From Candidatus Tumulicola sp. (GTDB taxonomy: Bacteria; Vulcanimicrobiota; Vulcanimicrobiia; Vulcanimicrobiales; Vulcanimicrobiaceae), in the NCBI GenBank assembly GCA_036490475.1, contig DASXDT010000004.1, positions 23,797 through 87,796 of the forward strand: 64,000 bases of DNA. Reading direction: 5' to 3'. Shown piece after piece: positions 2,295-59,913 of the stretch; positions within the stretch are counted from its first letter, which is position 1; every line of letters starts with the position of its first letter. Below the pieces are notes generated by a model. It saw only the letters and a program-made list of their open reading frames with translations, did no database searches and was not told where the DNA came from. Both the position numbers and the translations under genes were made by a program.

Positions 2295-2500
2295 TCACAT
2301 CCTCAGCAAAATCTCGGCAAGCGTCCAGGCGATTACCAGTATTACATGATTAAACAGTAGGTACGCACCCCAATGCAAGGAGACCGCCCCGAATGGACTA
2401 CCAAAGACCAACAGTCTGTTCGACCCGATAGCTACTAGAGGTTAGCGACGAGTTCCCGCGCTGGGAACACCTTTCTTCTACCCGCACTAGCCGGCCTATA

Positions 2501-2506
2501 AGGAGG
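2501..2506 (+). promoter_or_regulatory. Shine-Dalgarno AGGAGG serving the downstream membrane-protein gene
   Basis: Perfect AGGAGG immediately after the in-frame stop TAA 2499-2501. The next in-frame codons 10-16 nt away are ATT-ATC-ATT. No ATG/GTG/TTG in that frame before 2568. Confidence 0.55.
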
Positions 2507-2516
2507 CTTCTTTCCT

Positions 2517-3854
2517 ATTATCATTCGAACGAGTGGCACAGCGCTAACCTCGGCTCGGACTTTCGTTTTGGTCGCGTCGTGCGTCTTTTTCGCAACGTAC
2601 GTCGCTATCGATTTGAATAAGTTATGCGCCTTGCGGGTTGGTTCGAACACAGGCGAATATCTGCAAACCGCCGTCAATTTCATTCGCTACGGATCTACCT
2701 ATAACTACGTAGATTGGAACTCTACGTTGGCGATGCATGACCAATGGATGACGCTGGCGATCGTTCCTTTCGTCTTGATCTGGCCTCACCCGGAATCCGT
2801 CATCGTGCTCCAGGTCCTAGCCTTGGCCGCGACCGCCCCGTTGCTGTTCGTCCTCGTTCGGAGGTGGGGCGGAAATGCCGAGACTGCAGCCATCGTTGCG
2901 ATAGTCTATCTGCTACAGCCGTCCGTTCAAGGCTTCGCTAATGCAGAATTCGTTCCGCTTGACTTCGTTCCGTTGCTGAGCGTTGGGCTTGCGATTGCCG
3001 TGACCGCTCGATCGCTCGTTTGGAGCTTGCTCCTCGTGCAACTGCTGTGTGGAACCAAAGAAGACGTGGGATTGTTCGTGTGCTGGTTTGGACTCGTTTA
3101 TGCGGCCTTCGGCCATTTGCGATTCGGACTAAGCGTCGCGGCTTTGTCAGGCGCAAATTTGGCTGCGTACTACGCCCTCGCGCATGGCTTTATTGGCGGG
3201 ACGGTGCACCCGACGTATTCGGCTGTAGACGTAAACTGGCCGCAACAGTTAGCGTTTCTAAGCGAGATTTCGGCACCCTTTGCGTTCGCCGCTCTAGCCT
3301 TGGGATGGCGCGTTTTGCTTGCTTTTCCGTTACTAGCGGAACTCTTTTTTGCGCATTGGAATTTTCCGTTGTACCAGGCCGGAAGTTACTACACTGTCAT
3401 GATTGTGACCGCGGTGGTGCTAGCGTCGGCGTATGTCCTAGCGAGGAATGCGGGATGGGCACGACTGTCGATAGCTACCGCCCTTATTATGGCTATGTTT
3501 TTTAACACGACCGTGCTGCACTTCGGCAGGCATTGGTATTCGTGCGATCCGTTGTACAGTCGCGCCCTCGCCTGGAGCTTTACGCAACAGGGAATATATT
3601 TTCCCTGTGAGGATCAAGGCGCTTGGACCGTAGCAGCCGCTGATACGCAGGCACGACTCATAGGGTGCGGACATCATCGTATGCTCCGGCACGCAAGAGC
3701 GGCTTGGGGGAACGAAGCGTTGTTCAGCGATTCACCGTGGACACAAAGCCCCGGCACGCTCCTCGGCCCTCCGCAGCAATGGAGCCTTAACAAAGCCTGC
3801 AAATGGTTCGCTCACGCCGGCTCACGATGCCGCTGTCGGGCACCCCACGTGTAA
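2517..3854 (+). CDS. polytopic membrane protein (DUF2079/GT-C-like by appearance), probable ATT/ATC start
   Basis: ORF track gives 2568..3854 (TTG), with many hydrophobic helices. TTG 2568 falls inside the helix FVLVASCVFFATYVAI. The SD at 2501-2506 argues for initiation at 2517-2523. Family assignment is tentative. Confidence 0.65.
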   Translation: MIIRTSGTALTSARTFVLVASCVFFATYVAIDLNKLCALRVGSNTGEYLQTAVNFIRYGSTYNYVDWNSTLAMHDQWMTLAIVPFVLIWPHPESVIVLQVLALAATAPLLFVLVRRWGGNAETAAIVAIVYLLQPSVQGFANAEFVPLDFVPLLSVGLAIAVTARSLVWSLLLVQLLCGTKEDVGLFVCWFGLVYAAFGHLRFGLSVAALSGANLAAYYALAHGFIGGTVHPTYSAVDVNWPQQLAFLSEISAPFAFAALALGWRVLLAFPLLAELFFAHWNFPLYQAGSYYTVMIVTAVVLASAYVLARNAGWARLSIATALIMAMFFNTTVLHFGRHWYSCDPLYSRALAWSFTQQGIYFPCEDQGAWTVAAADTQARLIGCGHHRMLRHARAAWGNEALFSDSPWTQSPGTLLGPPQQWSLNKACKWFAHAGSRCRCRAPHV

Positions 3855-3897
3855 CAGCAAATGTTGAAGATGGAGCGGAACCGTTTACGGCTGCCTC

Positions 3898-4257
3898 TCA
3901 CGCATTCCATTTTGCCATAGACGTTTGGAAGGCCGGCGCCTTGAATGAGTCGTTACACGCGGAGTCTTCTATGGCAGCCGCGGAGCCCTCACGTATAAAC
4001 GCAATTATTGCGCGGTCGCCACACGAGAACCACAAAGAACCTAGCCGCTGGCGCCAGTAAGGAGTGCGCGTAATCGTCAACAACCAATAGACCTGCTCGT
4101 TTCTGAGTGTGGGAACTCCCGCTTTGCCGACGTCAAGCACGCGGTACACGGGGCGATAACCGCTTTGGGAAGATTGCGCGCGCCCCGAAACCACCGTGCT
4201 TGCAAACGATGCGGCCAACGCCGCCGTAAGAAGTGAGTAGCGCGGTATTTTCGACAC
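3898..4257 (-). CDS. hypothetical secreted protein
   Basis: GTG inside ORF 3898..4365, just downstream of the stop of 4262..4555. VSKIPRYSLLTAALAASFASTVVSGRAQS is signal-peptide-like. Confidence 0.35.
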   Translation of the reverse strand: MSKIPRYSLLTAALAASFASTVVSGRAQSSQSGYRPVYRVLDVGKAGVPTLRNEQVYWLLTITRTPYWRQRLGSLWFSCGDRAIIAFIREGSAAAIEDSACNDSFKAPAFQTSMAKWNA

Positions 4258-4261
4258 AATC

Positions 4262-4555
4262 TTAGACAATCGCTTCGCCGCTTGCTTCGCTTGATCGCTC
4301 TCGCAATGCGACAAGTGCCGTCGCGGCCACGTCGCTTTCTTTGATCGGCGCGGGCAGTTTTCCACCGCCGATGGTTCCGGCGTAAATTTGGTTCAACAAA
4401 GACGCTAGCTCAGCCGCTGAAGCTCCCGTATTAAGCAAATCGCATATCTCCGGAGCGTAGTCGTCGTACTCGTCTGATGCACTCGACAAGCCCCGCACTT
4501 GAAGAGGATCCCAAACTTCCCATAAGACGCCGGCAACGGCTGCTTCTGTAACCAT
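4262..4555 (-). CDS. hypothetical acidic protein
   Basis: 97-aa ORF with protein-like composition. No family recognised. Confidence 0.45.
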   Translation of the reverse strand: MVTEAAVAGVLWEVWDPLQVRGLSSASDEYDDYAPEICDLLNTGASAAELASLLNQIYAGTIGGGKLPAPIKESDVAATALVALRERSSEASGEAIV

Positions 4556-4611
4556 TCTACCCTTTTGAGCTTGGTGCGTGTCGTTAGGCTTCTTGCGAGA
4601 CGGGAATAAGC

Positions 4612-5628
4612 GTGCGAATGAACGCCTTTGAAATCTTCCCTAAGAAAACCTTTGGACTCGGCGGCGTGCCTTTCGGCAATGAGTTCGCATACGTCACCGA
4701 TGAGATCGCGTATTCCACGATCGAAGCCGCGTGGGAGGCCGGGGTGCGGTACTACGATACTTCCCCGTGGTACGGGCTCGGGCTCGCGGAGCGGCGTCTG
4801 GGTACCTTCTTACACAAGCAAAAGCGCCGCGACTACGTGTTATCGTCGAAGGTTGGGAAATTGCTTACGGCGTCGCGTGATAACGACGCGAAGAAATACT
4901 ATCCGTTTACCCCTTCGCCGAACAATCTTCGTTACGACTATACCGGCGACGGCGTTAAGCGCTCGATCGAAGACAGCCTGCAGCGGTTAGGAGTCGATGC
5001 ACTGGACGTCGTTTTCGTCCACGATCTGTCGCCGGACAATCCGTGGTTGCCGGGGCCGTGGGAGGAGCACTTCGAGATCGCTCGCAAGGGCGCATTTCCG
5101 GCTCTGAGCCGGATGCGAGATGAGGGCGTGATCAAGGGCTGGGGTCTGGGCGTCAACTCGCCCGAGCCGATTCTGAAGCTCATGGAGGTGGCCGACGCCA
5201 ACGTCTGCCTCCTGGCGCGACAATATTCGATGATCGATCATGAGAACGCGCTGCATCAGGTCTTTCCAAAAGCCCGTGAGCGAGGGATGGGCTTCGTGGT
5301 CGGTTCGTCGCTCAATGCGGGCTTTATTAGCGGCAGCGCGCGCTTTAACTATGGAGAGGAGAACTACAAGATTCCGGCTGCGGCGATCCAGAAGCGCGAT
5401 CGTCTGCGCACTGTCGCGGACCGTTACGGTGTCGACCTTCGAACGGCGTCGCTGCAGTTTTCGCTTGCACCGGATGTCGCGGCTGCGCTCATCGTCGGAT
5501 GCGCGAATGCGGGGCAGGCTTTGGCGAACTACACGTCAGTCCAGACAAAAGTTCCGGCGGAGTTCTGGTCGGACCTTCGATCGGAGGGATTGATCGAAAG
5601 CGACGCCGCGGTTCCGCCAGAGAAGTGA
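4612..5628 (+). CDS. aldo/keto reductase family oxidoreductase
   Basis: FGLGGVPFGNEF...AGVRYYDTSPWYGLGLAERRLG...LGVDALDVVFVHD...VVGSSLNAG, typical AKR (aldose/fucose dehydrogenase-like) motifs. Confidence 0.9.
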   Translation: MRMNAFEIFPKKTFGLGGVPFGNEFAYVTDEIAYSTIEAAWEAGVRYYDTSPWYGLGLAERRLGTFLHKQKRRDYVLSSKVGKLLTASRDNDAKKYYPFTPSPNNLRYDYTGDGVKRSIEDSLQRLGVDALDVVFVHDLSPDNPWLPGPWEEHFEIARKGAFPALSRMRDEGVIKGWGLGVNSPEPILKLMEVADANVCLLARQYSMIDHENALHQVFPKARERGMGFVVGSSLNAGFISGSARFNYGEENYKIPAAAIQKRDRLRTVADRYGVDLRTASLQFSLAPDVAAALIVGCANAGQALANYTSVQTKVPAEFWSDLRSEGLIESDAAVPPEK

Positions 5629-28384: not shown

Positions 28385-28475
28385 TGGCGGAGAGGGAGAG
28401 ATTCGAACTCTCGGAACGCTCATCACGTTCGCCCGCTTTCGAGGCGGGTGCCTTCAACCACTCGACCACCTCTCC
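28385..28475 (-). tRNA. tRNA-Ser (anticodon CGA)
   Basis: Reverse complement reads GGAGAGGTGGTCGAGTGGTTGAAGGCACCCGCCTCGAAAGCGGGCG...GAGAGTTCGAATCTCTCCCTCTCCGCCA. Loop CTCGAAA, long variable arm, CCA encoded. Confidence 0.9.
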
Positions 28476-28495
28476 GCGATGAGCGACCGCCTAAG

Positions 28496-28972
28496 CTACG
28501 GCGCCGCCCGCTCAATGCCTTCCGCGGCCCGACGGCCCTCAAAAAAGCTCCGCAATTGCTCGGCAGTTTCCGCTTGCAACACGCCTGCGTCGATAGCGAT
28601 ACGGTGGTTGGTTTTCGGCGAGCGCAACACGTCGAACGCGCCGCCGTCGGCTCCGCCTTTTGGATCGTTTGCTCCGTATACCAGGCGGCCTACGCGTGCC
28701 GCGAGGATCGCGCCGGCACACATCAGGCATGGCTCTTTTGTGACGTACAGTGTCGCATCGGATAATCGCCACCGCCCCAGGCGCCGCGCAGCTTCACGGA
28801 GCGCAAGCATTTCCGCGTGCGCAGTTGCGTCGGCGGTCTTTTCTTTTTCATTGTGCGTTTCGATCGTCACGTCGCCGCAAAGCAAAACTGCGCCGACGGG
28901 AACGTCGCCGTCGAGCGCGGCGATGTCGGCGAGGTCGATTGCGCGACGCATATAGCGTTCATCGTCGTTCAC
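28496..28972 (-). CDS. tadA: tRNA adenosine(34) deaminase
   Basis: VPVGAVLL...HAEMLALREAA...LYVTKEPCLMCAGAI, the CMP/dCMP deaminase zinc motifs (HAE...PCxxC). Confidence 0.9.
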   Translation of the reverse strand: MNDDERYMRRAIDLADIAALDGDVPVGAVLLCGDVTIETHNEKEKTADATAHAEMLALREAARRLGRWRLSDATLYVTKEPCLMCAGAILAARVGRLVYGANDPKGGADGGAFDVLRSPKTNHRIAIDAGVLQAETAEQLRSFFEGRRAAEGIERAAP

Positions 28973-29114
28973 TCGATTCCGAGTCAGCCACGCCTTTTTA
29001 GAAACGACTGAATTAATGAATGCCCGATCCCTTCCAGCGCCATCAGTTCGTAATTGTGTTTGGTATGAGCAACTCGATCCTGACGGTATTCATCAGCGTA
29101 TTGCCTCGGGGAAA

Positions 29115-29191
29115 TGGTGCGCCCGGAGGGATTCGAACCCCCGGTCCCAGCCTTCGGAGGGCTGTGCGTTATCCAGCTACGCTACGGGCGC
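29115..29191 (-). tRNA. tRNA-Arg (anticodon CCG)
   Basis: GCGCCCGTAGCGTAGCTGGATAACGCACAGCCCTCCGAAGGCTGGGACCGGGGGTTCGAATCCCTCCGGGCGCACCA. Clean cloverleaf, CCA encoded. Confidence 0.9.
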
Positions 29192-29199
29192 AGGCGTCG

Positions 29200-29436
29200 C
29201 TACCGCGGAGTTTCTCCGGCTGGGCCAGCACTCGGCATGTGCTTGAACAGGTCGAGTTTGTGGTCGACCAGCGTTCGGTAGAACTTCCGAACGCAGTCCG
29301 GATGTCCGAAAAAGTAGGTGCGCGCGTAGGCGAGATCGTCGCCCGAACTGTCGGGAACGTAGTGCGAAATCTCCACTTCTTCCATTTGCACCCGGTCGAC
29401 CGGGTGCGGGCAGAAATCGCACGGGATAGTTGACAT
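29200..29436 (-). CDS. small hypothetical protein (Cys/His metal-site-like) embedded in the tRNA cluster
   Basis: GAGGAAAA SD then ATG. MSTIPCDFCPHPVDRV...FFGHPDCVRKF has CxxC...HxxC. It ends 9 nt before tRNA-Arg(CCG). Confidence 0.45.
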   Translation of the reverse strand: MSTIPCDFCPHPVDRVQMEEVEISHYVPDSSGDDLAYARTYFFGHPDCVRKFYRTLVDHKLDLFKHMPSAGPAGETPR

Positions 29437-29491
29437 TATAGGTTTTCCTCGGTTCGGACCGGCCCGGTGTCGGAGCCGGTCCTTTCAAACT

Positions 29492-29563
29492 TGACTCGGG
29501 GGTGATTTGAACACCCGACCAAGGGCTTATGAGTCCCCTGCTCTACCGCTGAGCTACCGAGCC
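29492..29563 (-). tRNA. tRNA with CAT anticodon (elongator Met or lysidine-modified Ile2)
   Basis: GGCTCGGTAGCTCAGCGGTAGAGCAGGGGACTCATAAGCCCTTGGTCGGGTGTTCAAATCACCCCCGAGTCA. Loop CTCATAA, no encoded CCA. It lacks the C1:A72 mismatch, so it is not an initiator. Confidence 0.8.
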
Positions 29564-29643
29564 GCGGCTGCGCGAACGTAGTCGCTTCGACACCGTACTG
29601 TAACAGAACCCGCTCTACTCCCGCAAGGTTCGGATAACGAACT

Positions 29644-29667
29644 GCCGCCCGTTTAAGGGCGGCTTTT
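29644..29667. terminator. GC hairpin plus T4 (intrinsic-terminator-like in plus orientation) between two minus-strand tRNAs
   Basis: GCCGCCC-GTTTAA-GGGCGGC-TTTT. On the minus strand the stem is followed only by AGTTCGTTAT. Confidence 0.35.
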
Positions 29668-29676
29668 CGCAAGATC

Positions 29677-29750
29677 TGCGGTCGGAGGGACTCGAACCCC
29701 CAACCTACAAGTTCGTAGCCTGTTGCTCTATCCAATTGAGCTACGACCGC
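29677..29750 (-). tRNA. tRNA-Arg (anticodon ACG)
   Basis: GCGGTCGTAGCTCAATTGGATAGAGCAACAGGCTACGAACTTGTAGGTTGGGGGTTCGAGTCCCTCCGACCGCA. Loop CTACGAA, no encoded CCA. Confidence 0.9.
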
Positions 29751-29776
29751 ACGATATTTTTTGTCTTACGCCGATT

Positions 29777-29866
29777 CGGAGAGAGAGGGATTCGAACCCT
29801 CGGTACGACTTTACATCGTACAACGGTTTAGCAAACCGCCGCCTTCAGCCGCTCGGCCATCTCTCC
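29777..29866 (-). tRNA. tRNA-Ser (anticodon GCT)
   Basis: GGAGAGATGGCCGAGCGGCTGAAGGCGGCGGTTTGCTAAACCGTTG...CCGAGGGTTCGAATCCCTCTCTCTCCG. Long variable arm, no encoded CCA. Confidence 0.9.
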
Positions 29867-50474: not shown

Positions 50475-51758
50475 TTAAACGGCGGCGAGTTCGAGCGCGC
50501 GCGGGTCGGCGATTTTTCCGGCTAAGGCCGACGCGGCACAGGTCGCGGGAGACGCGAGGTAGACCTCGGCTTTCGGCGAGCCCATCCGGCCGACATAGTT
50601 GCGATTGGTGGTGGAGACCGCACGCTCGCCATCTCCGAGCGTCCCCATGTGGCCGCCGAAACAGGCGCCGCATCCGGGCGTGTTCACCGCACATCCGGCC
50701 GCCGCTAAGATGGTGAGAATGCCTTCCTGAGCGGCTTGCATCCAAACTTTTTGACTGCCAGGGTTGACGATCACGCGCAGGTTCGACGCGATTTTCTTTC
50801 CGTCGAGAATCTTCGCCACGACACGTAAGTCTTCGATATAACCGTTCGTACACGATCCGATAAACACTTGATCGACGTCGATGTTATCGGCCGCGACTTC
50901 GGAAATGGGATGCACGTTATCGGGCGTATGCGGACAGGCGACTTGCGGTTCCAGTTGGCCCACATCGATGTTGACGATCCGCTCGTACACGGCGTCGTCG
51001 TCAGAACGTTCGACGACGAACGGGCGATCCGTTCGCTCGGTAACGTATGCGAGCGTCTTGGCATCCGCGTGGAAAATGCCGTTCTTGGCGCCGGCCTCGA
51101 TCGCCATGTTGGCCATCGTAATGCGACCCGTGATCGACAAGCGATCTACCGTGGTGCCGTGATACTCGATCGCGCGATAGGTTGCGCCGTCGATGCCGAG
51201 TTCGCCGACCGTACGGAGCATGACGTCTTTTGCATAGACCATGGGACCGAGCTCGCCGTCGTACACGATCTTGATCGTCGAAGGAACTTTCAACCATACC
51301 TCGCCGAGTACGAAGGCTGCGGCGATATCGGTCGAGCCCATTCCTGTGGCAAACGCGCCGAAGGCACCATACGTGCACGTATGCGAATCGCCGCCGACGA
51401 TCAGCTCGCCGGGTGCGACGAGGCCTTCCTCAGGCAGCACGACGTGTTCGATTCCGCCGCGGCCCACGTCGAAGAAGTGCTCGATCTCTTGCTCCTTCGC
51501 GAATTCTTTCATGAGACGAGCAAGTTTTGCGGACTGCGCGTCCTTGGCCGGAACGAAGTGGTCCTCGACCAGCGCGATTTTTTTCCGGTCGAACACGCGG
51601 CTCGCGCCTTTGATTCCGCGCATGACCGCGATCGCGACCGCGGCCGACAGTTCGTTGGCCAACACCAAGTCGACGTTTGCGTTAATGATGCTGCCGGCGC
51701 TAACGCGTTCCAAGCCGGCATGTCGAGCCAGAATTTTTTCGGTGAGCGTCATTCCCAT
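50475..51758 (-). CDS. leuC: 3-isopropylmalate (or homoaconitate) dehydratase large subunit
   Basis: MTLTEKILARHAG...VEDHFVP...GGDSHTCTYGAFGAFATGMG...FIGSCTNG...PGCGACFG (aconitase Fe-S ligands). Start is ATG 51758 or 51752. Confidence 0.9.
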   Translation of the reverse strand: MGMTLTEKILARHAGLERVSAGSIINANVDLVLANELSAAVAIAVMRGIKGASRVFDRKKIALVEDHFVPAKDAQSAKLARLMKEFAKEQEIEHFFDVGRGGIEHVVLPEEGLVAPGELIVGGDSHTCTYGAFGAFATGMGSTDIAAAFVLGEVWLKVPSTIKIVYDGELGPMVYAKDVMLRTVGELGIDGATYRAIEYHGTTVDRLSITGRITMANMAIEAGAKNGIFHADAKTLAYVTERTDRPFVVERSDDDAVYERIVNIDVGQLEPQVACPHTPDNVHPISEVAADNIDVDQVFIGSCTNGYIEDLRVVAKILDGKKIASNLRVIVNPGSQKVWMQAAQEGILTILAAAGCAVNTPGCGACFGGHMGTLGDGERAVSTTNRNYVGRMGSPKAEVYLASPATCAASALAGKIADPRALELAAV

Positions 51759-51792
51759 GATTGAATCGGTTATCCAGCGAAGCCGCGGAGTC

Positions 51793-53031
51793 ATGCAGGA
51801 CCGGGACTTCGGATTCGCCACGCGCGCGATCCACGCCGGGACGCCGCCGGACCCGGCGACCGGGTCGCGGGCAGCCCCGATTTATCAAACGGCCGCGTAT
51901 GTGTTCGACTCGGCCGAGCAAGCTGCCGAACTCTTCGCACTACGCAGCTATGGGCACATCTACAGCCGGATCAGCAACCCGACCGTTGCCGCCTTCGAGG
52001 AACGAATGGCAAGCCTCGAATCGGGGCTCGGCGCGGTCGCGTTCTCCAGCGGCCTGGCGGCGCAACTGTGTACGGTGTTGGCATTGGCTCAATCCGGCGA
52101 TCACATCGTCTGTTCGCGAAATGTCTACGGCGGAACCATTACGCAACTCTCGGTCACGATCAAGCGCATGGGCATCGAAACGACGTTCGTCGATACCGAT
52201 GACGACGCGGCCGTCGCCGGCGCGATCGGGCCGCAGACACGCCTCCTGTTTGTGGAGACCGTCGCCAACCCGTCTGGTTCGCTCGCCGATATCGAAGCGT
52301 TGACGCGCATCGCGCACGACGCCGGCGTGCCGCTTGCCGTCGACAACACGTTTGCAACGCCGTATTTTTGCCGCCCGATCGAACGCGGCGCCGACATCGT
52401 CCTGCATTCGGCCACGAAGTTCATCGGCGGGCACGGCACGAGCATCGGCGGCGTTGCGATCGAATCGGGGACGTTCCCATGGGGCAACGGGCGCTTTCCG
52501 CTGTTGTCGGAACCGAGCCCGGGCTACCATCGCAAAGTGTTCTCCGAGACGTTCGGTGAGTATGCGTTCTTGATGCGTTTGCGGGCCGAAGTTTTGCGCG
52601 ATATCGGTGCGCAACTCTCGCCAATGGACGCGTGGCTCTTGTTACAAGGACTCGAAACGCTACCGCTGCGGATGGACCGTCACACCGCTAATGCGCGCAC
52701 GGTCGCGGACTTTTTGCAGGGCCGCCCAGAGGTTGCGTGGGTACGTCCGCCACTCTTAGGTGCAGTGTTTACGTTTGGTTTGAAGGGCGGACGCGAAGCC
52801 GGAAGCCGTCTCATCGACGCGCTGAGTTTGTGGAGCCACTTGGCGAACGTCGGTGATGCCAAGAGCTTAGTCATTCATCCGGCGTCGACGACCCACTCGC
52901 AACTCAGCGATGGCGAGCTCGAAGCGGCAGGGGTGCCACCCGAATCGGTGCGGCTGTCGGTTGGGTTGGAAGACGCGAACGATCTGATATGGGATCTCGA
53001 ACGCGGGCTACGCGCGGCAGCAGCAGTCTAG
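51793..53031 (+). CDS. metY: O-acetylhomoserine/O-acetylserine sulfhydrylase (PLP-dependent)
   Basis: GGAG then ATG 51793. FATRAIHAG...[10 protein letters not shown]...YSRISNPT...[16 protein letters not shown]. The upstream part of track ORF 51241..53031 is antisense to leuC. Confidence 0.9.
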
Positions 53032-53046
53032 GGAGCACGACATCGC

Positions 53047-53439
53047 ATGATACACCACGTCGACGTTCACGTCCGCGAACTCCGATCCGCGGAAACGCTG
53101 TTCGGCGCATTATCCGCCCCGCTCGGATTCCGGCGAGTCCCGGATGAGGCCGGCTTCGTCGGATACGAACCATCGGACGGCAGCCGTCCGCGCATCGGTT
53201 TTACCCAAAACGACGAAGCCTCCGGCGGAACGATGCAACTGGCTTTTGGCGTCGACGACCGTGCTCGTGTCGACGCGGCCGCCGAAGCGGCGCAAAAGGC
53301 GGGCGCGCAAAAGATCGACGGTCCGTCGCTCAATCCCGAATACGGCGACAATTATTACGCCGTTTTCTTTGAGGACGTGGACGGAAACCGGTATGAGGTC
53401 CTTACCCGTTCGCAAGCCAGCCCGCAGGTGGACGCGTGA
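53047..53439 (+). CDS. VOC (glyoxalase/bleomycin-resistance) family protein
   Basis: MIHHVDVHVREL...MQLAFGVDD...YYAVFFEDVDGNRYEV. Confidence 0.8.
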   Translation: MIHHVDVHVRELRSAETLFGALSAPLGFRRVPDEAGFVGYEPSDGSRPRIGFTQNDEASGGTMQLAFGVDDRARVDAAAEAAQKAGAQKIDGPSLNPEYGDNYYAVFFEDVDGNRYEVLTRSQASPQVDA

Positions 53440-53918
53440 TCGCGAGTACGCCGGCCGATATTCGTTCGCTGCTCGAGCGCGTGACATCGATCGCGATGGT
53501 CGGCGCTTCGGATAATCCGCTGCGCCCGAGCTATACGGTTTTCTCCTATCTTCGAACGCAAACGCCGTATCGCGTGGTTCCGATCAATCCCAACGTCGCA
53601 GAGATCGATGGTATTGCAGCGCTGCCGTCGCTGGCTGCGTACGCCGACGCGTACGGTCCACCAGACGTAGTCGACGTTTTCCGTCGGCCGGCCGATGCTC
53701 TCACGGTCACCGAAGAGGCCATCGCCGCCGGCGCGCGAGCGATGTGGTATCAGTACGGGGTTATAAACCAAGACGCTATCGCACGCGCCGACGCTGCCGG
53801 GTTGACCGTAGTGGTGGATCGTTGCATCAAAGTCGAGTACGCGCGCTTTTGCGGCGGACTCGCTTCGGCCGGACTCAATAGCGGCGTCATCACGTCGCGC
53901 CGTCGCGCGCCGCATTGA
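53436..53918 (+). CDS. CoA-binding domain protein (YccU-like)
   Basis: GTGA overlap with the upstream stop. IAMVGASDNPLRPSY...VVPINPN...DVVDVFRRP...MWYQYG. Confidence 0.85.
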   Translation: MIASTPADIRSLLERVTSIAMVGASDNPLRPSYTVFSYLRTQTPYRVVPINPNVAEIDGIAALPSLAAYADAYGPPDVVDVFRRPADALTVTEEAIAAGARAMWYQYGVINQDAIARADAAGLTVVVDRCIKVEYARFCGGLASAGLNSGVITSRRRAPH

Positions 53919-55051
53919 CGTACGCGAGCGAATCGGCGGCGCTCGACGCAGACATTCTCGCCGTCATCGACGCCTGGCGAACGCGCGGAGTGACGTTAGC
54001 GGACCAAGCGTTCGACGATCTCGCGTTGCGGCTGTTCGACTATCAGCGCCGTTACAATCTGCCGTATGCGCGCTACTGCACGATGCTCGGATGGAATGCT
54101 ACGACGACGCCACAGTCTTGGGATCGCATTCCGGCCGTCCCGGCTGCGGCATTTAAGGAAGCTGCGCTCGCCTCGTTCCCGGTCGAGGGCGCCGTCCTGA
54201 CGTTCGAAACCAGTGGCACGACCGACGGGCATCCCGGCAATCACTATTTTGAAACGAGCGCCCTCTACGATGCCGCGCTGCTGGCCGGTTTCGAGCGATT
54301 CATGCTCGGCGACGGGGCGCGGCTGCGGTATTGCAACGTCGTTCCGAATCCGGCGATCCGTCCGCAGTCGTCACTTGGGTACATGATGCGCGCCGTTGCG
54401 GCCGCCTTCGGCGACGGCGAGACGAGCTGGTACGTGCAACCGGATCGCATCGACATCGACCGTTTGATCGTCGACTTGCACGACGCCGCTCGACACGACC
54501 GGCCCTTGTGTATCGCGACCACCGCGTTTGCACTCGTAGCGCTTCTCGACCGGCTCGAGGAGCTTGCAATGCAGTTGCCCTTGCCGCACGGATCGCGCGT
54601 GATGGAAACCGGCGGCTTTAAGGGCCGCACGAGAACGCTGGATCGCGGCGAACTCTACCGGCAAACGGCGGCTGCGTTCGAGCTTTCCGATTCGGCGATC
54701 GTCGCAGAGTACGGCATGACCGAGCTAACCTCGCAATATTACGATGGACCACCCAACAGCGCAGCTCGCAGCGATACGGACGTTCGGTATAAGTATGCCG
54801 GACCGTGGCTGCGCTCGCGCGTCGTCGGTGCCGATGGACGAACGCTTCCCGACGGAATCGTCGGCGCGCTCGTGCACGTCGATCTTGCGAACCGCGCGTC
54901 GTGCATCGCCATCGCAACCGAAGATCTCGGAGCGCGCCTCGTCGATCCGCAGACGGGCGAGACAGCCATCGTCCTCATCGGCCGGGAACGGGGCGCCGAA
55001 TTACGCGGCTGCTCGCTCGACGCGGAAACGCTGCGCGATCTGCGGGCCTAA
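53915..55051 (+). CDS. LuxE-like acyl-protein synthetase / acyl-adenylate-forming enzyme
   Basis: TTGA overlap. FDDLALRLFDYQRRYNLPYARYC...IPAVPAAAFKEA...FETSGTTDGHPGNHYF...METGGFKGR...EYGMTELTSQYY, the pattern of the LuxE/PaaK-like family. Confidence 0.7.
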   Translation: MTYASESAALDADILAVIDAWRTRGVTLADQAFDDLALRLFDYQRRYNLPYARYCTMLGWNATTTPQSWDRIPAVPAAAFKEAALASFPVEGAVLTFETSGTTDGHPGNHYFETSALYDAALLAGFERFMLGDGARLRYCNVVPNPAIRPQSSLGYMMRAVAAAFGDGETSWYVQPDRIDIDRLIVDLHDAARHDRPLCIATTAFALVALLDRLEELAMQLPLPHGSRVMETGGFKGRTRTLDRGELYRQTAAAFELSDSAIVAEYGMTELTSQYYDGPPNSAARSDTDVRYKYAGPWLRSRVVGADGRTLPDGIVGALVHVDLANRASCIAIATEDLGARLVDPQTGETAIVLIGRERGAELRGCSLDAETLRDLRA

Positions 55052-55066
55052 GGAACGCTGCAGTCG

Positions 55067-56302
55067 TTACGTCGGAGACGGGTACGGACTGGGGCTGCCG
55101 GGGCTAAACGACGGATTCGGAGTCGGCGACGGCGGGGGAGGCGGGCCGACGAAGACCCTCGACGCGCTTGCATACGAGGCAATCGTAATGTTGCGTCCGT
55201 GCGCGCCCTGCCGGAAGACACGCATGCGCGGATATTGTCCGTGCGCGTTGGAGCCTTGCGTCAGCGGATTCCAAGTGTTTGCGAGCGCGGCAATTTGGGC
55301 GTTAGGGGTGACCACTGAGATTTCAGAGATTATGCCGTGTGCCGCGATGAAGACGTTACCGCCGGGAGAAAAGGCCGCCCCGTGCCCGAAATCGATCATG
55401 GGCAACATCGGCGACGGCTGCGGCGAGGTCACCGGCGCCGGGAACGAATCGCGGTATCCGTATTGCTTCGATTGGTACGTTTGATACGACGAAGTAATGT
55501 TCGCAGTGCCGTCAGTGTAGATTCCGATGTTCGCGCCAAGAACGCTCTCTGCCGGCTGACCGTTGAGTGTTACCGACGGATGCAGACCTTGCGCCGAGAA
55601 GGCCAACACCGCGTATCCGCTTCCGAGCAACGCGCAAGCCGTGCACGTCACCGCACCGCCCGGCAACATCAACCCGCCGGCCTTCGCCGACGTCGACTTG
55701 GTTGCCGCTGCAAAGGTTACGTGCGAAGCCACGAGCTGGCCTAACCCGTCTAACGATGCGTAACTGGCACTTCCGGGAATCGACAGCGACGGCGCGCCGA
55801 CGTACAAGCGATTGATCTGTACCTCGGTTACATCCGTTCCGACTTCCAGCGTCGCGAATGCCGTGCGCGAACTCGGATGTCCGACGATCGCTTCGTAATT
55901 CAAATCTTCGCCGAAGCCACTGATGAACGCGGCATCGGCTTGACGAGGTCCCATGCCGTAGCCCGAGCCGTTGATCGTGACACCCGTGGGGATAACGATC
56001 GGAAACAGTTCGCCGCTGGCAGTTGTGTATGCGCCGGGCTGCAGTTCGATCGTCAGGCCGGTGACCGTCTCCGACTTCACCACGGCCAGCGCCTTCGTCA
56101 GCGTCTTGAACGGGCTCGTCTGCGAACCGTTCCCGGTGGTGTCGTTTCCGGTTTTCGGATTGACCATGAGCGTCGTCAGCGGCGTGGCCGTCGGCGGAAT
56201 GATGGTCGAGTGACCGCGTCGCGTGCACGCGGCGGTATCGATGAGGCCGGCGATCGACGCTGCAGCCAATAACACAAAGAACGCGCGCACGCACCACGTC
56301 AT
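55067..56302 (-). CDS. secreted right-handed beta-helix protein (DUF1565-like) with Pro-rich tail
   Basis: Signal peptide. LMVNPKTGNDTTGNGSQTSPFKTLTKALAVVKS...TINGSGYG is typical of DUF1565/pectate-lyase-fold proteins. C-terminal PPPPPSPTPNPSFSPGSPSPYPSPT. Confidence 0.7.
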   Translation of the reverse strand: MTWCVRAFFVLLAAASIAGLIDTAACTRRGHSTIIPPTATPLTTLMVNPKTGNDTTGNGSQTSPFKTLTKALAVVKSETVTGLTIELQPGAYTTASGELFPIVIPTGVTINGSGYGMGPRQADAAFISGFGEDLNYEAIVGHPSSRTAFATLEVGTDVTEVQINRLYVGAPSLSIPGSASYASLDGLGQLVASHVTFAAATKSTSAKAGGLMLPGGAVTCTACALLGSGYAVLAFSAQGLHPSVTLNGQPAESVLGANIGIYTDGTANITSSYQTYQSKQYGYRDSFPAPVTSPQPSPMLPMIDFGHGAAFSPGGNVFIAAHGIISEISVVTPNAQIAALANTWNPLTQGSNAHGQYPRMRVFRQGAHGRNITIASYASASRVFVGPPPPPSPTPNPSFSPGSPSPYPSPT

Positions 56303-56385
56303 GCCGCTCTCGTTTGCCGCATCTCCGCCGGTAACCTCGAACGCGTCCTGCGGGCGCCTCTTGGCTTTCCGCGAACCTGGGAGGC

Positions 56386-57597
56386 ATGACGACCGGTCGA
56401 CGTCCGGTCCGCTCGGTGATTCGGGCGGTTTCGGATGCCGCGCGACGCTGGAGCGACGGCGATTTCCCCCCTCGCGTTCGTACGTTGGCGGCCGTCAGCC
56501 GGAGAACCGGCTATTCGTCGCCCGTTGCTGAGTATGCGTTGGACCGATTGTTTTCATCCATTTCTAACGATGCGCTGGTCGCGACGATCGCGGGCGAACT
56601 GGGGTCGCTCGACGCGCTGGATGGATTCGTCGACCGGAACGGCATGCGGGTGCGCGCGCTGCCGGCCGGACGAACGTGCATCATTTCAAGCCGGACGACG
56701 ATCGGCGTCGCGATCGTTCCGGCGGTCTTCGCAATCTGCGCGGGATGCGACGTGATGGTCAAGGATCGCGAAGATCACATGGTCGATGCTTTTTTTCGTA
56801 CCCTGCTCGAAGAGCTGCCGGATCTTTCGCAACGGATCGCCGCGCAAACCTGGGACGGTTTCGCAAGCGAACGAGATTTGCGCGATTTCGATACGGTCGT
56901 AGCGTTCGGCGACCGAACCTCGCTCGAAACCATTCGCGCGCTGTGCGCCGCCGAGAGCCGCTTCATCGCGTACGGCCCGCGAACCAGCGCCGGTTACGTC
57001 GCACGAGAGTCGCTCGAGGGCGACGTCGAAGCGCTGGTTCGAGAGGCGGCGCGCGACGCCGTCCTCTACGACACGGAAGGCTGCCTATCGTTACGTACGA
57101 TTTTCGTAGAACGCGGTGGCGCCATTTCGCCCGAAGACTTTTTCTCGGCGTTGGCGCGCGAAATGGAGCGCGCCGCAGTTGAGTTTCCGCCTTCGCGGAA
57201 CGACCCGGCGGCGATTGCCGCGGTGGCCGCGGCGCACGATCTCGGAGCGTTTCGCGCGGCGAACGGGCAGGGCACGGTGCGCACCGATGCAGCGCGAAGT
57301 TATGTGGCAGTCTTCGACGGCGGATTCGAACGTGCGCCCGACTTTCTGCCTCGAACGGTCGCCGTTTTCCCGGTCGACGCACCGTCGCAAGCGGCCGACT
57401 ACCTTCGGCAGCACGCGCTCCCGATCGAAGCCTGGAGCGCAAGTTCGCAACGTGCCGACATCGTCGACGCCGCGATCGCATCGGGCGCGGCGCGCGTGGC
57501 TGCATTCGGCGCGTTGCAGAACCCGCCGCTATCCACTCCGCACGGCGGCAGGCCTCGAATCGCGGAATTCGTGCGATGGGTGAGCGATGAGCGGTGA
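56386..57597 (+). CDS. LuxC-like acyl-CoA/acyl-protein reductase (aldehyde-forming)
   Basis: AARRWSDGDFPPRV...YALDRLFSSI...ISSRTTIGVAIVPAVFAICAGCDVMVKDRE...YDTEGCLS, the pattern of the LuxC family (ALDH-like with catalytic Cys). Confidence 0.7.
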   Translation: MTTGRRPVRSVIRAVSDAARRWSDGDFPPRVRTLAAVSRRTGYSSPVAEYALDRLFSSISNDALVATIAGELGSLDALDGFVDRNGMRVRALPAGRTCIISSRTTIGVAIVPAVFAICAGCDVMVKDREDHMVDAFFRTLLEELPDLSQRIAAQTWDGFASERDLRDFDTVVAFGDRTSLETIRALCAAESRFIAYGPRTSAGYVARESLEGDVEALVREAARDAVLYDTEGCLSLRTIFVERGGAISPEDFFSALAREMERAAVEFPPSRNDPAAIAAVAAAHDLGAFRAANGQGTVRTDAARSYVAVFDGGFERAPDFLPRTVAVFPVDAPSQAADYLRQHALPIEAWSASSQRADIVDAAIASGAARVAAFGALQNPPLSTPHGGRPRIAEFVRWVSDER

Positions 57598-58879
57598 GCG
57601 TTCGGCGAACGGGACGCCGATTCCAGGTCCGCGCAGTCGCGCGTTGTTAGATCGCTTGCGCGTCCGCGAATCTCGCAACGTTACGGCTATTAGCCACGAT
57701 TTTCCAGTGGTGTGGCAGAGCGCTTCGGGTGCGTTTATCGATGATTGCGATGGCAACCGCTACCTCGATCTCACGTCCGCATTCGGGGTGGCAAACGTCG
57801 GCCACGCAAATCCGCGCGTCGCACGTGCGATTTCAGAGCAAGCAGCGCTACTTCCGCACGCGATGGGCGACGTCCATCCGCCCGAAGTGCGTATCCGGCT
57901 GCTGGAACGGCTGCACGACATTTTGCCGGGAGACATGTCGAGAACGTTTTTGGCGACGACCGGTTCGGAAGCCGTCGAAGCCGCTTGTAAAAGCGCCGTC
58001 CTCGCGACCGGCCGCACGCGCTTTGCCGCCTATCGCGGTGCCTATCACGGCTTGTCGCTTGGAGCGCTCGCGGTGTGTGGGCTCGAGAAATTTCGCGCGC
58101 CGTTCGCGGGGGCATTTGCGGCCGGAACGGTCTGGCTCGATTATCCCGGCCACGACATCGACGCAGCGGCGGCGATCGCTGCAACCGAAGAACAACTCAG
58201 GGAGTGGCACGACGTCGCTGCGGTCGTGATCGAACCCGTTCAAGGCCGAGGCGGCTGTATCGTGCCGCCTGACGGCTACTTGTCCGCGCTACGATCCTTG
58301 TGCGATCGCCGGGGAATCCTATTGATCGTCGACGAGATCTACACCGGCTTCGGAAGAACGGGAACCTGGTTTGCGATCGAGCGCGATGCAATCGCTCCCG
58401 ACGTACTCTGCATCGGCAAAGCGATGGGCGGCGGATTTCCGATTAGTGCCGCCGTAGGATCGAAAACGGTCATGGACGCGTGGCCGGTTTCCAGCGGAGA
58501 AGCGCTCCACACGTCGACCTATCTCGGCAACCCGATGGGTTGCGCGGCCGCACTCGCTGTCATCGATGAAGTGCAAGACCGCTCGCTGCCGGAACGAGCC
58601 ATGCGATTGGGTGAGACGATCGCAGAACGGTCGCGGCGATGGACCGGCCTCTCGGGTGTGGTCGACGTGCGCGGGCGCGGAGCGTTCTGGGGAATCGAAT
58701 TCGATCGGCCGGAGCGCGCAGAACGACTCGTGAAAGATGCACTGCAAGACGGGCTCATCTTGCTCCAATCGGGAGCGACCGGAAATGTTGTCACGATCGG
58801 TCCTCCGCTCGTCATCGCCTTCGACGATCTCTCGCATGCGCTCGAGACGATCGAACGCCGCCTAATGGAGAACGACTAA
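57587..58879 (+). CDS. class-III (omega) aminotransferase
   Basis: NRYLDLTSAFGVANVGHANP...TGSEAVEAACK...YHGLSLGA...IVDEIYTGFGRTG...CIGKAMGGGFP (PLP Lys). 11-nt overlap with the LuxC-like gene. Confidence 0.9.
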   Translation: MSGERSANGTPIPGPRSRALLDRLRVRESRNVTAISHDFPVVWQSASGAFIDDCDGNRYLDLTSAFGVANVGHANPRVARAISEQAALLPHAMGDVHPPEVRIRLLERLHDILPGDMSRTFLATTGSEAVEAACKSAVLATGRTRFAAYRGAYHGLSLGALAVCGLEKFRAPFAGAFAAGTVWLDYPGHDIDAAAAIAATEEQLREWHDVAAVVIEPVQGRGGCIVPPDGYLSALRSLCDRRGILLIVDEIYTGFGRTGTWFAIERDAIAPDVLCIGKAMGGGFPISAAVGSKTVMDAWPVSSGEALHTSTYLGNPMGCAAALAVIDEVQDRSLPERAMRLGETIAERSRRWTGLSGVVDVRGRGAFWGIEFDRPERAERLVKDALQDGLILLQSGATGNVVTIGPPLVIAFDDLSHALETIERRLMEND

Positions 58880-59913
58880 TGGAACGGTACAAGATCGGAA
58901 TCGTCGGATCGGGATTCGGCGTCACGTCGCATCTGCCGGCGTTGCTGGCGCACCCGCGGTTCGATGTGGTGGCGTTGGCATCGCCGTCGAGCGCGAAGCG
59001 CATCGCAGCCGAACGCAACATTCCCAACGCCTTCGCTTCCTGCCGCGAGATGATCGCCGGGTGCGAGCTCGACGCGGTGACCGTCGCCTCGCCACCCTTC
59101 GCGCATCTCGACGACGTCGATGCGTGCCTGGATGCCGGCAAGCACGTGCTCTGCGAAAAGCCGTTTGCCCTCAACGTCGCGCAAGCTGAAACGATGGTCG
59201 AGCGTTCGAAGCGCGCCGGCACCGCGTGCGGAATCGCGCACGAATTCCGCTTCGTCCCGCAAGCCCAAGCGTTGCACGAGCTGGTCGCCAACCGGCATCT
59301 CGACCCCCTGCGCGACATCGAAGTCACGGCGCTGCGGCGCTCGCTGCGACGCGACGTGCAGCGCGAGCGTAGTTGGTGGTTCGATCGCGAGCGTGGAGGC
59401 GGCATGGCGGGAGCGCTGCTCTCTCACATGATCGATCAGGCGACCTGGACGTCGGGGCGCGAACCGCGCAACACGGTCGGAATGCTTCGTACCGCAAACC
59501 CGCGACGAACCGACGAGCGCGGAACGTTCGAATCGAACGTCGACGATGGCGCGTTCGCGATCGTCGACTATGGCGGCGGCCTCGTCGCACGATTATGCAT
59601 CGATGCCGCGACCGGGTTGGACAGCTATACGTGTGCGATTCACGGTGAAGACCGGTCGGCGGTTGCCAGCGGGGACACCGTCACCGACCTGACACTATTC
59701 TCGATCGACGAAGAAGAAACGAGCGAGTTGGAGTGCAAACCTTCACCCTACGCGCGTTTCGCCTCGATCAACGCCAACGTTCCGTTGCTCATGGAACTGT
59801 ACGATCAGTTCGTTCTCGCGATCGAAGGCAAATCCAGCGGGTTGCCCACCTTCTCGCAGGCGCTCGCGACGCAGCGCGTTCTCGCTGCGCTCGGATTCGG
59901 TTCGGCCGTCTAA
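58879..59913 (+). CDS. Gfo/Idh/MocA-family NAD(P)-dependent oxidoreductase
   Basis: TAATG overlap. MERYKIGIVGSGFGVTSHLPAL...VLCEKPFALN. Internal start of track ORF 58639..59913. Confidence 0.85.
   Translation: MERYKIGIVGSGFGVTSHLPALLAHPRFDVVALASPSSAKRIAAERNIPNAFASCREMIAGCELDAVTVASPPFAHLDDVDACLDAGKHVLCEKPFALNVAQAETMVERSKRAGTACGIAHEFRFVPQAQALHELVANRHLDPLRDIEVTALRRSLRRDVQRERSWWFDRERGGGMAGALLSHMIDQATWTSGREPRNTVGMLRTANPRRTDERGTFESNVDDGAFAIVDYGGGLVARLCIDAATGLDSYTCAIHGEDRSAVASGDTVTDLTLFSIDEEETSELECKPSPYARFASINANVPLLMELYDQFVLAIEGKSSGLPTFSQALATQRVLAALGFGSAV

Follow-up and report, generated by a model that had tools for sequence, protein, structure and literature searches.

A gene cluster in the genome of a soil bacterium from Eremiobacterota, a phylum about which little is known, raises the question of which pathway could join a LuxE-like adenylating enzyme and a LuxC-like reductase with a class-III aminotransferase. 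The first-pass annotation of the window (the whole 64,000-nt stretch of DNA that was analysed) had read the cluster as a possible route from a carboxylate, perhaps a fatty acid, via an aldehyde to a primary amine or amino-alcohol. Here we examine which genes belong to the unit, what their products are likely to do, and which acid they may act upon.

Organization of the locus

The genes of the cluster and their upstream neighbor are the following:

51793-53031, plus strand: MetY, O-acetylhomoserine sulfhydrylase (TIGR01326, 552.8 bits against a cut-off of 495)
53047-53439, plus strand: VOC/glyoxalase-like protein, 130 aa (PF18029 and PF00903, weak matches)
53436-53918, plus strand: CoA_binding_2 protein, 160 aa (PF13380, 120.7 bits)
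53915-55051, plus strand: LuxE-like adenylating acyl-protein synthetase, 378 aa, TTG start (PF04443)
55067-56302, minus strand: DUF1565 beta-helix protein (PF07602)
56386-57597, plus strand: LuxC-like acyl-thioester reductase, 403 aa (PF05893)
57587-58879, plus strand: class-III PLP aminotransferase, AT3, 430 aa (PF00202)
58879-59913, plus strand: Gfo/Idh/MocA NAD(P) oxidoreductase, 344 aa (PF01408, PF22725 and PF02894)

Pfam assignment bore out the positions and families originally given to the LuxE-like, LuxC-like, aminotransferase and Gfo/Idh/MocA genes, and the overlaps that had been claimed can be read directly from the sequence. The VOC and CoA_binding_2 frames share GTGA at 53436-53439, CoA_binding_2 and LuxE share TTGA at 53915-53918, LuxC and AT3 overlap by 11 nt (ATG at 57587, TGA at 57595-57597), and AT3 meets Gfo in the TAATG at 58877-58881, which places the start of Gfo at the ATG at 58879 and not at the longest-ORF start at 58639. 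The true start of MetY likewise lies downstream of 51241, since in the longest ORF (596 aa) the Pfam domain sets in only at residue 194. As previously stated, no luciferase-type gene is present among the genes scanned beside the cluster, and a profile scan of neighbors detected neither luxAB nor luxD among the flanking genes in the window or in ~100 related loci.

A conserved triad and its neighbors

Synteny was analyzed in 80 species of the phylum, with only the readable loci counted for each adjacency. LuxC is followed by AT3 in 73 of 73 readable loci, and the two are fused into a single frame in three lineages (L132, L223 and L224); the LuxC-aminotransferase linkage, which the first-pass annotation had suggested looking for, is therefore kept in relatives. 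LuxE is present in every genome tested, including 10 of 10 in which it is unlinked from LuxC, and the sister family f3 also carries the triad, in another genomic context. The conserved core consists of the LuxE-like protein, the LuxC-like protein and AT3, and this triad behaves like a set of housekeeping genes, single-copy and class-wide.

Gfo follows AT3 in 66 of 68 loci. It is missing in L057 and L102, its place is taken by an MFS_3 transporter in family f3, and its f2 counterpart is only 28-31% identical. The protein matches PF01408 (85.6 bits), PF22725 (56.9) and PF02894 (53.4) and reaches no NCBIfam equivalog. It is an accessory, common but subject to loss, and this near-constant partner has no role in the route to preQ1 proposed below.

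Membership of the cluster as first drawn was thus revised: LuxE, LuxC and AT3 were retained, Gfo was kept as an accessory only, and the VOC, CoA-binding and beta-helix genes were removed. Of 77 loci, 32 have the beta-helix gene upstream of LuxC. More distant genera lack it, their LuxE and LuxC genes being direct neighbors; it is a lineage-specific insertion between these two and stands outside the pathway. CoA_binding_2 is linked to MetY and not to LuxE, for it remains with MetY, on the other strand, in loci with an inverted LuxE; it is context only. VOC occupies this position in only 3 of 20 relatives' loci, all from the closest relatives, and MetY is a conserved upstream neighbor with a housekeeping assignment, not a pathway part.

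It could be argued that the genes share no pathway at all and are held together by conserved housekeeping synteny (leuC, metY, cinA, nadE), each acting on its own. The region leuC-metY ... cinA-nadE is indeed syntenic across the family, and MetY and the CoA-binding protein are mere neighbors. However, the LuxC::AT3 fusions, the overlapping start and stop codons, and the recurrence of the triad in differing contexts (families f2 and f3 and other phyla) all speak against this explanation, which was already disfavored and which we consider highly improbable.

Searching genome contigs with a profile of a 7-sequence LuxC alignment gave matches only in Eremiobacterota, and nearly all matches to the LuxC of the window, the f3 LuxE and the representative P0247 also fell within this phylum. 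P0247 and P0248 are divergent members of the unit with the same synteny. Six f3 genomes that appeared to lack the unit in a first protein search reflected a sensitivity artefact, all of them possessing f3-type LuxE and LuxC. PF05893 alone was rejected as a marker of the unit because other classes of the phylum have another type, a frame of ~890 aa found with QueC.

The LuxE-like and LuxC-like proteins

The LuxE-like protein matches PF04443 with 38.5 bits (cut-off 24.9), covering profile positions 47-384 of 391, and scores 40.2 bits against the NCBIfam LuxE equivalog NF052244, whose cut-off of 550 is not reached; judged by these profiles, it is a member of the PF04443 family and not an orthologue of LuxE from luminous bacteria. 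Its RGCSLDA motif aligns with KGCSLSM of PDB 7XC6 chain E, matching the acylated cysteine near the C-terminus (Cys364 in P. phosphoreum LuxE, the reference for the motif), and the same motif was found in the f3 LuxE orthologue and in the P0302 clade. The LuxC-like protein gave 144.6 bits against PF05893 and 45.6 bits against the LuxC equivalog NF052251 (NCBIfam), again without reaching the cut-off (750). All 12 orthologues compared keep its Cys233 (GCLS), which corresponds in alignment to the active-site cysteine (ACFS) of 7XC6 chain A. Both thioester-carrying cysteines of a LuxE-LuxC reductase are thus conserved. Elsewhere, in unrelated contexts, close LuxE homologues have an SDR or ADH partner, and a plasmid collection yielded LuxE-LuxC-SDR cassettes only, a different flavor.

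The chemical logic first put forward for the cluster, activation of a carboxylate, reduction to the aldehyde and amination, is supported by the two conserved cysteines and by the invariable adjacency of LuxC and AT3, which are fused in three lineages. The fatty substrate fared worse. It was suggested that LuxE and LuxC convert a fatty acid to a fatty aldehyde from which the aminotransferase forms a fatty amine or amino-alcohol lipid; the sole characterized LuxE-LuxC pair does use myristate (PMC12041015), and a LuxC-related thioester reductase acts with an omega-transaminase to give dodecylamine for tambjamine BE-18591 (bioRxiv 10.1101/2025.08.11.669332). However, the present proteins score far too low to pass as LuxE and LuxC equivalogs, and in ~100 loci the unit has no linked gene for an acyl carrier protein, a thioesterase (LuxD), fatty acid synthesis or lipids. 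The unit is also single-copy, class-wide and housekeeping-like, and elsewhere its partners are queE and queD. These neighbors, together with the queuosine gene gap described below, favor 7-carboxy-7-deazaguanine (CDG), and a fatty substrate seems to us improbable.

The aminotransferase AT3

AT3 scores 340.5 bits against PF00202 and reaches no NCBIfam equivalog cut-off (best 311 bits against 574; GabT 277 against 507). The PLP lysine (GKAM) and the Asp motif DEIY are conserved in 91 AT3 orthologues. Both in these and in relatives from other phyla, the equivalent of GabT Arg141 is a leucine (YHGLS), tyrosine or phenylalanine stands in place of the glutamine of DEVQ, and the equivalent of GabT Arg398 is serine, threonine or alanine (motif V-[STA]-I-x-PPL); the same positions read FHG-R-T and I/L-R-[VI]-A-PPL in the genome's own ArgD and OAT. 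Arg141 and Arg398, numbered as in E. coli GabT, are the carboxylate-binding arginines of GabT/ArgD-type enzymes, and AT3 has neither. By its sequence, AT3 represents a distinct class-III aminotransferase subfamily. The lack of an arginine for a distal substrate carboxylate is in keeping with an uncharged heteroaryl aldehyde and speaks against an omega-amino acid as the product, and a route from a dicarboxylate to an omega-amino acid (GABA, beta-alanine) was accordingly considered unlikely. AT3 is also without the arginine to which the amino donor normally binds through its alpha-carboxylate, and it may catalyze a reaction other than transamination.

Separate ArgD, OAT and HemL enzymes are encoded in the genome, along with HemL-like and PatA-like paralogues. 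AT3 is not an orthologue of ArgD, OAT, HemL or GabT, and the first-pass annotation, which had named ArgD or GabT orthology as fatal to its reading, is therefore not contradicted. An ArgB/ArgC/ArgD-like or HemA/HemL-like replacement was rejected in view of the canonical ArgD, OAT and HemL.

A gap in the queuosine genes of the class

De novo synthesis of queuosine is held to need QueD, QueE, QueC and QueF (PMC11130926). Among 41 genomes of the class Eremiobacteria, QueD was found in 40, a QueE-like gene next to QueD in 40, QueA in 40 and Tgt in 39; QueC over its cut-off was detected in 0 of 41 and QueF in 0 of 41. The genome under study has a QueD over the QueD equivalog cut-off, and a tblastn search of it with a genuine QueC of the phylum gave no match. 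The QueE-like genes of families f1 and f2 lie below every QueE equivalog cut-off.

In a sample of 151 genomes of the phylum, QueC is confined to other classes. Outside the class, 25 of 25 QueE-positive genomes have QueC or a near-cut-off QueC match, and inside it ~80 QueE-positive genomes have the triad-type LuxC and no QueC, a complementarity that amounts to essentially one class-level event, so that the genomes are not statistically independent. The triad is not located beside queDE or tgt in Eremiobacterota: it lies 14-24 kb from queDE in f3 and on another contig in this genome. A small secreted protein encoded after queD in f3 (P0123, P0124) was rejected as not a plausible enzyme, and a riboswitch search revealed no preQ1 riboswitch in the window, the related loci or the metagenomic cassettes.

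Links to queE and queD in other phyla

Outside the phylum, locus L226 is arranged as QueE-AT-LuxE-LuxC with overlaps of 4, 13 and 28 nt (QueE, 281.5 bits), and locus L227 as QueE-x-AT-x-LuxE-LuxC (QueE, 301.7 bits against a cut-off of 300). The aminotransferases of both are 45-49% identical to AT3 and possess the same active-site signature. Two further triads, L229 and L231, have no adjoining queE and make up 2 of the 4 class-III aminotransferase triads seen outside the phylum. LuxE-(MFS)-LuxC-QueD was found on one strand in 33 metagenomic loci, with LuxE-LuxC directly before queD; the PVC-type LuxE-LuxC-QueD cassettes have no aminotransferase nearby and could act on the QueD product instead.

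These cassettes bear on a second explanation, according to which the triad aminates some other small polar acid, for example a pterin carboxylate (6-carboxy-tetrahydropterin, the QueD product) or an unrelated metabolite, with Gfo acting on the same molecule and the preQ1 used by Tgt being salvaged or supplied by other enzymes. The generic chemistry supports it equally well, the regular position of Gfo beside AT3 suggests an extra redox step, the PVC cassettes tie LuxE-LuxC to QueD, not to QueE, and do so without an aminotransferase, and the triad is not operonic with queDE in Eremiobacterota. Such a substrate would, however, leave queD-queE without a downstream enzyme in ~80 genomes, CDG having no other known fate; moreover, in L226 and L227 it is an aminotransferase of the AT3 subfamily that is translationally coupled to QueE, and Gfo has been lost in some lineages and is absent in f3. 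We regard this explanation as possible but doubtful.

A proposed route from CDG to preQ1

Both the phyletic gap and the genes found beside the unit in other lineages suggest that the substrate is CDG, which QueE produces. We infer the aldehyde intermediate, the amino donor and every enzymatic activity of the triad, as we do the substrate, and the reactions would run as follows. LuxE would adenylate the carboxylic acid with ATP and hold the acyl group as a thioester on its C-terminal cysteine, Cys233 of LuxC would accept this group and NAD(P)H would reduce it to the aldehyde, and AT3, adjoining or fused to LuxC, would turn the aldehyde into a primary amine. CDG would thereby be converted through 7-formyl-7-deazaguanine to preQ1 (7-aminomethyl-7-deazaguanine), which would then be inserted by Tgt and matured by QueA, the LuxE-LuxC-AT3 line standing in for the QueC and QueF that are absent from the whole class. 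That the triad is a carrier-free carboxylate-to-amine line making preQ1 from CDG has, in our judgement, an even chance of being correct. The wider claim, that the whole class and scattered queE-AT-luxE-luxC lineages of other phyla replaced QueC/QueF and avoid the nitrile preQ0 altogether, seems to us just as finely balanced. A literature search found no description of a preQ1 route via LuxE, LuxC and AT3, nor, in keeping with the first-pass annotation, any characterized system of such composition.

Genome-based calls of queuosine makers and users rest on QueD, QueE, QueC and QueF. If the proposed preQ1 route is correct, these predictions would have to be revised for an entire class of bacteria abundant in soil and peat, as well as for further uncultured lineages, and no preQ0, the branch point to archaeosine-like DNA/RNA modifications and deazapurine antibiotics, would be made in such organisms. 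It would also provide a natural carrier-free acid-to-amine line acting on a polar heteroaromatic acid, of interest for biocatalysis, and establish a subfamily of class-III aminotransferases that lack the carboxylate-binding arginines usually present. Should the substrate be a different one, the unit would still be an uncharacterized, vertically inherited pathway in every sampled genome of the class.

Comparison with known systems

In the canonical route, QueC converts CDG to preQ0 with ATP and ammonia and QueF reduces preQ0 to preQ1 with NADPH. The proposed route would share its start and end and, like it, require ATP to activate the carboxylate and NAD(P)H for the reduction, but it would employ unrelated families, pass through an aldehyde instead of a nitrile, take its nitrogen from a PLP-bound amino group instead of ammonia, and need one two-electron reduction in place of a four-electron one. 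So far the aldehyde concerned, 7-formyl-7-deazaguanine, is known from QueF mutants alone, as a by-product of hydrolysis (PMC13740343).

LuxC-LuxE of luminous bacteria (Photobacterium phosphoreum, 7XC6) belong to the same two Pfam families, have both thioester cysteines and are encoded by adjacent or overlapping genes, and both systems are expected to form an acyl-enzyme with ATP and then to reduce the acyl group to the aldehyde with NAD(P)H. The similarity is nevertheless remote (phmmer E-values of 3.6e-9 and 2.8e-6; 40-46 bits against cut-offs of 550 and 750). Here luxAB and luxD are missing among the flanking genes, the partner is an aminotransferase, and a deazapurine carboxylate is predicted as substrate in place of myristate.

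ArgB-ArgC-ArgD and LysZ-LysY-LysJ follow the same three-step logic (acyl-phosphate, semialdehyde, class-III transamination) and likewise end with a class-III aminotransferase, but they activate the acid with a kinase instead of an adenylating enzyme and use a GAPDH-type reductase; the present genome has its own ArgD, and AT3 is devoid of the arginines used there. TabE/TabA of tambjamine BE-18591 biosynthesis and engineered CAR plus transaminase cascades also lead from a thioester or acid via the aldehyde to a primary amine. TabE belongs to the ALDH superfamily, and LuxC is its only characterized relative in its sequence cluster (bioRxiv 10.1101/2025.08.11.669332). These systems belong to secondary metabolism, take fatty acyl-ACP or acyl-CoA as substrate and depend on carrier proteins or a phosphopantetheine arm, whereas the triad appears carrier-free, housekeeping-like and class-wide, with a remodeled aminotransferase active site.

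Gene organization of the cluster

The cluster at 53047-59913 is made up of the following genes:

53047-53439, plus strand: VOC-fold gene, PF18029, PF00903 (weak)
53436-53918, plus strand: CoA_binding_2 gene, PF13380
53915-55051, plus strand: LuxE-like gene, PF04443 (38.5 bits, cut-off 24.9)
55067-56302, minus strand: DUF1565 beta-helix gene, PF07602
56386-57597, plus strand: LuxC-like gene, PF05893 (144.6 bits)
57587-58879, plus strand: class-III aminotransferase (AT3) gene, PF00202 (340.5 bits)
58879-59913, plus strand: Gfo/Idh/MocA oxidoreductase (Gfo) gene, PF01408 plus C-terminal domains

The first-pass annotation had described this cluster, and its ORFs, Pfam families and gene overlaps (GTGA, TTGA, 11 nt and TAATG) were all present in the sequence. 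The upstream flank carries leuC and metY, a bona fide O-acetylhomoserine sulfhydrylase gene, and the downstream flank cinA and nadE. By its named homologues the organism belongs to Eremiobacterota (Baltobacteraceae / Tumulicola). The longest metY ORF (window 51241-53031, 596 aa) overlaps the divergent leuC gene with its 5′ part; its PLP-enzyme domain extends from residue 194 onward, placing the real start near 51793. Elsewhere in the window, a match to the Plastid-psbl-rps4 3UTR RNA (RF04351, 29777-29866) is exactly antisense to a tRNA gene of a five-tRNA cluster (28388-29866) and is almost certainly spurious, caused by the tRNA sequence.

A predicted LuxEC-like reductase and an atypical aminotransferase

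The sole solved-structure match of both the LuxE-like and the LuxC-like protein was the LuxC-LuxE complex 7XC6. In the alignments, the LuxE-like protein has RGCSLD at its C-terminus opposite KGCSLS of the 7XC6 LuxE, and the LuxC-like protein has Cys233, within GCLS, opposite the active-site cysteine of the 7XC6 LuxC; Cys233 is invariant in 12 orthologues with identity down to 30%. In the characterised LuxC-LuxE enzyme, the LuxE C-terminal Cys and the LuxC active-site Cys are the acyl-carrying residues (PMC12041015). Orthology to LuxE and LuxC themselves was ruled out by equivalog scores of 40 bits for the LuxE-like protein (cut-off 550) and 46 bits for the LuxC-like protein (cut-off 750). With both acyl-carrying cysteines aligned and the scores far under the cut-offs, the pair is predicted to work like the LuxEC reductase but to belong to a different subfamily.

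AT3 reached no equivalog cut-off in the NCBIfam comparison. Five further class-III enzymes are encoded in the genome, namely ArgD, ornithine aminotransferase, HemL, a HemL-like paralogue and a putrescine-aminotransferase-like paralogue; AT3 is not any of them. A set of 91 orthologues retains the PLP lysine but differs from the usual residues at three other positions (E. coli GabT numbering): the equivalent of Arg141 (FHGRT motif) is Leu (YHGLS), the usual Gln of DEVQ is Tyr or Phe, and the equivalent of Arg398 (before xPPL) is Ser, Thr or Ala. Replacement of the carboxylate-site Arg suggests that the AT3 substrate probably lacks a distal carboxylate. Next to canonical HemL, the same genome carries a second HemL-like enzyme of class III (C2:214170-215717, minus strand), with 446 bits on the model of the GSA-aminomutase subfamily but a score under the hemL equivalog cut-off.

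The conserved unit

Gene order was compared in 20 loci from relatives' genomes and 80 species-level loci of the phylum Eremiobacterota. LuxC was followed by AT3 in 73/73 readable loci and AT3 by Gfo in 66/68, while LuxE lay immediately 5′ of LuxC in 44/77. The inverted beta-helix gene, found in 32 of the 77, is a lineage-specific insertion, and the VOC gene occupies this position in the closest relatives only. In one sub-clade LuxE is relocated, yet kept elsewhere in all ten of ten genomes; there the CoA-binding gene and metY stand together on the opposite strand, indicating that they are neighbours and not partners of the unit. Two loci (L057 and L102) have no Gfo, and the sister family f3 carries an MFS_3 transporter in its place. 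LuxC and AT3 are fused in a single frame in three Eremiobacterota lineages (L132, L223 and L224). The locus conservation, the Gfo losses and the LuxC::AT3 fusions together define the conserved core as LuxE, LuxC and AT3 (the triad). That these genes are together through mere synteny appears very improbable.

The fused polypeptides measure ~860-920 aa (L132 8620-11214; L223 ~2406-4907; L224 ~1681-4209, minus strand). In one Eremiobacteraceae-like f3 locus, the transporter replacing Gfo after the triad is of the EntS type (L030 6457-7917, minus strand). Other classes of the phylum (genomes G042-G141) possess a second LuxC type with much higher Pfam scores (250-335 bits) and open frames of ~890 aa, probably a fusion protein; it differs from the triad unit and in several genomes is found together with canonical QueC.

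A two-step gap in the queuosine pathway

The accepted pathway to 7-aminomethyl-7-deazaguanine (preQ1) needs QueD, QueE, QueC and QueF (PMC11130926). Among 41 genomes of the class Eremiobacteria, QueC over cut-off was found in 0/41 and QueF in 0/41; Tgt was present in 39, and QueD, a QueE-like protein adjoining QueD, and QueA in 40 each. A tblastn search of the genome studied here with a genuine QueC taken from a different class of the phylum gave no match. Its QueD scores above the QueD equivalog cut-off, and the best matches of the neighbouring radical-SAM protein are all QueE models, every one under cut-off. Tgt retains, in VLDVC and GGLSVGE, the Cys and Val of a preQ1-type pocket. Many genomes of the class (G007, G013-G016, G030, G032, G034, G036-G038 and G040) also have a second, more divergent QueA-family gene (~230-266 bits) besides canonical queA (~400-437 bits).

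In a second sample of 151 genomes of the phylum, QueC was over cut-off in 29 and just below it in one, all in other classes, and 25/25 QueE-positive genomes of those classes were among the QueC carriers. Some 80 QueE-positive Eremiobacteria genomes have the triad-type LuxC and no QueC; six f3 genomes in which the unit initially appeared to be missing do carry it. The pattern is clean, but it amounts to one evolutionary switch and so counts as a single observation.

Linkage to queuosine genes and proposed function

An exhaustive search with the LuxE-like protein returned 622 cluster representatives at E <= 1e-30. On one contig outside the phylum (L226, contig of P0250), genes for QueE (TIGR04349, 281.5 bits), an aminotransferase, LuxE and LuxC follow each other with 4-, 13- and 28-nt overlaps; on another (L227, contig of P0290), QueE (301.7 bits against a cut-off of 300) is followed by an aminotransferase gene with a small ORF on either side, and then by LuxE and LuxC. 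At 45-49% identity to AT3, both aminotransferases show the YHGL / DEI[YF]TG / no-Arg signature that AT3 and the aminotransferase of an Omnitrophota triad also have. The triad occurs without queE in L229 and L231. When metagenomes were scanned with another LuxE clade, 80 loci were recovered; in 33 of these LuxE, LuxC and QueD stand in this order on one strand, often with an MFS transporter between the first two, with gaps frequently <15 nt and no aminotransferase within reach.

Conversion of an acid via an aldehyde to an amine, the chemistry read by the first-pass annotation, is quite likely the generic function of the unit, and its nearest characterised analogues by logic are the fatty acid reductase LuxEC, the reductase-transaminase pair TabE/TabA from tambjamine biosynthesis, and the ArgBCD and LysZYJ lines. 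The fatty-amine product suggested along with that chemistry was not supported and is improbable. We propose instead that LuxE, LuxC and AT3 would convert 7-carboxy-7-deazaguanine (CDG) to preQ1 independently of QueC and QueF, a reading for which we regard the chances as evenly balanced. It is put forward because the gap in the otherwise complete pathway is exactly two steps, because the unit and QueC are complementary at class level, and because the same enzyme subfamilies are recurrently operon-coupled to queE and queD elsewhere. Counted against it are the lack of linkage to queuosine genes within this phylum, a Gfo partner without a place in the route, an amino donor unaccounted for, and the absence of a preQ1 riboswitch from the window, related loci and metagenomic cassettes. 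Action on another small polar acid is possible, though rather doubtful. No paper that we found connects LuxC or LuxE with queuosine or deals with queuosine in Eremiobacterota; the only role in which 7-formyl-7-deazaguanine was found in the literature is that of a by-product of hydrolysis in QueF mutants (PMC13740343). If the CDG to preQ1 assignment is true, the unit would have a role of potential importance, providing a route independent of QueC and QueF.

Related reductase cassettes in other contexts

In other contexts, related LuxE-LuxC pairs have an SDR or a zinc-ADH as partner. LuxE-LuxC-SDR cassettes, a variant of the same pair predicted to form alcohols, are found on plasmids of cultured bacteria, including Azospirillum (L133), Pantoea (L135) and Lactiplantibacillus plantarum (L134 1624-6321; 10-kb plasmid NZ_CP035118.1), where the cassette lies 3′ of an SLC23 (nucleobase/ascorbate-type) transporter. 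Three proteins (P0262, P0373 and P0327) are zinc-alcohol-dehydrogenase::LuxE fusions whose LuxE part is 35-39% identical to the LuxE-like protein of the window. In the metagenomic PVC-type cassettes, the transporter between LuxE and LuxC is of the MFS_1 family. The orphan Rfam motif Acido-Lenti-1 RNA (RF01687, gathering threshold 37) matched at L155 1322-1367 and L167 9976-10021, both on the plus strand, with 43.1 and 44.4 bits; one match precedes a queD-linked LuxE gene by ~300 nt and the other lies just upstream of LuxC in another cassette, and this RNA might be a regulatory leader of LuxE-LuxC cassettes.
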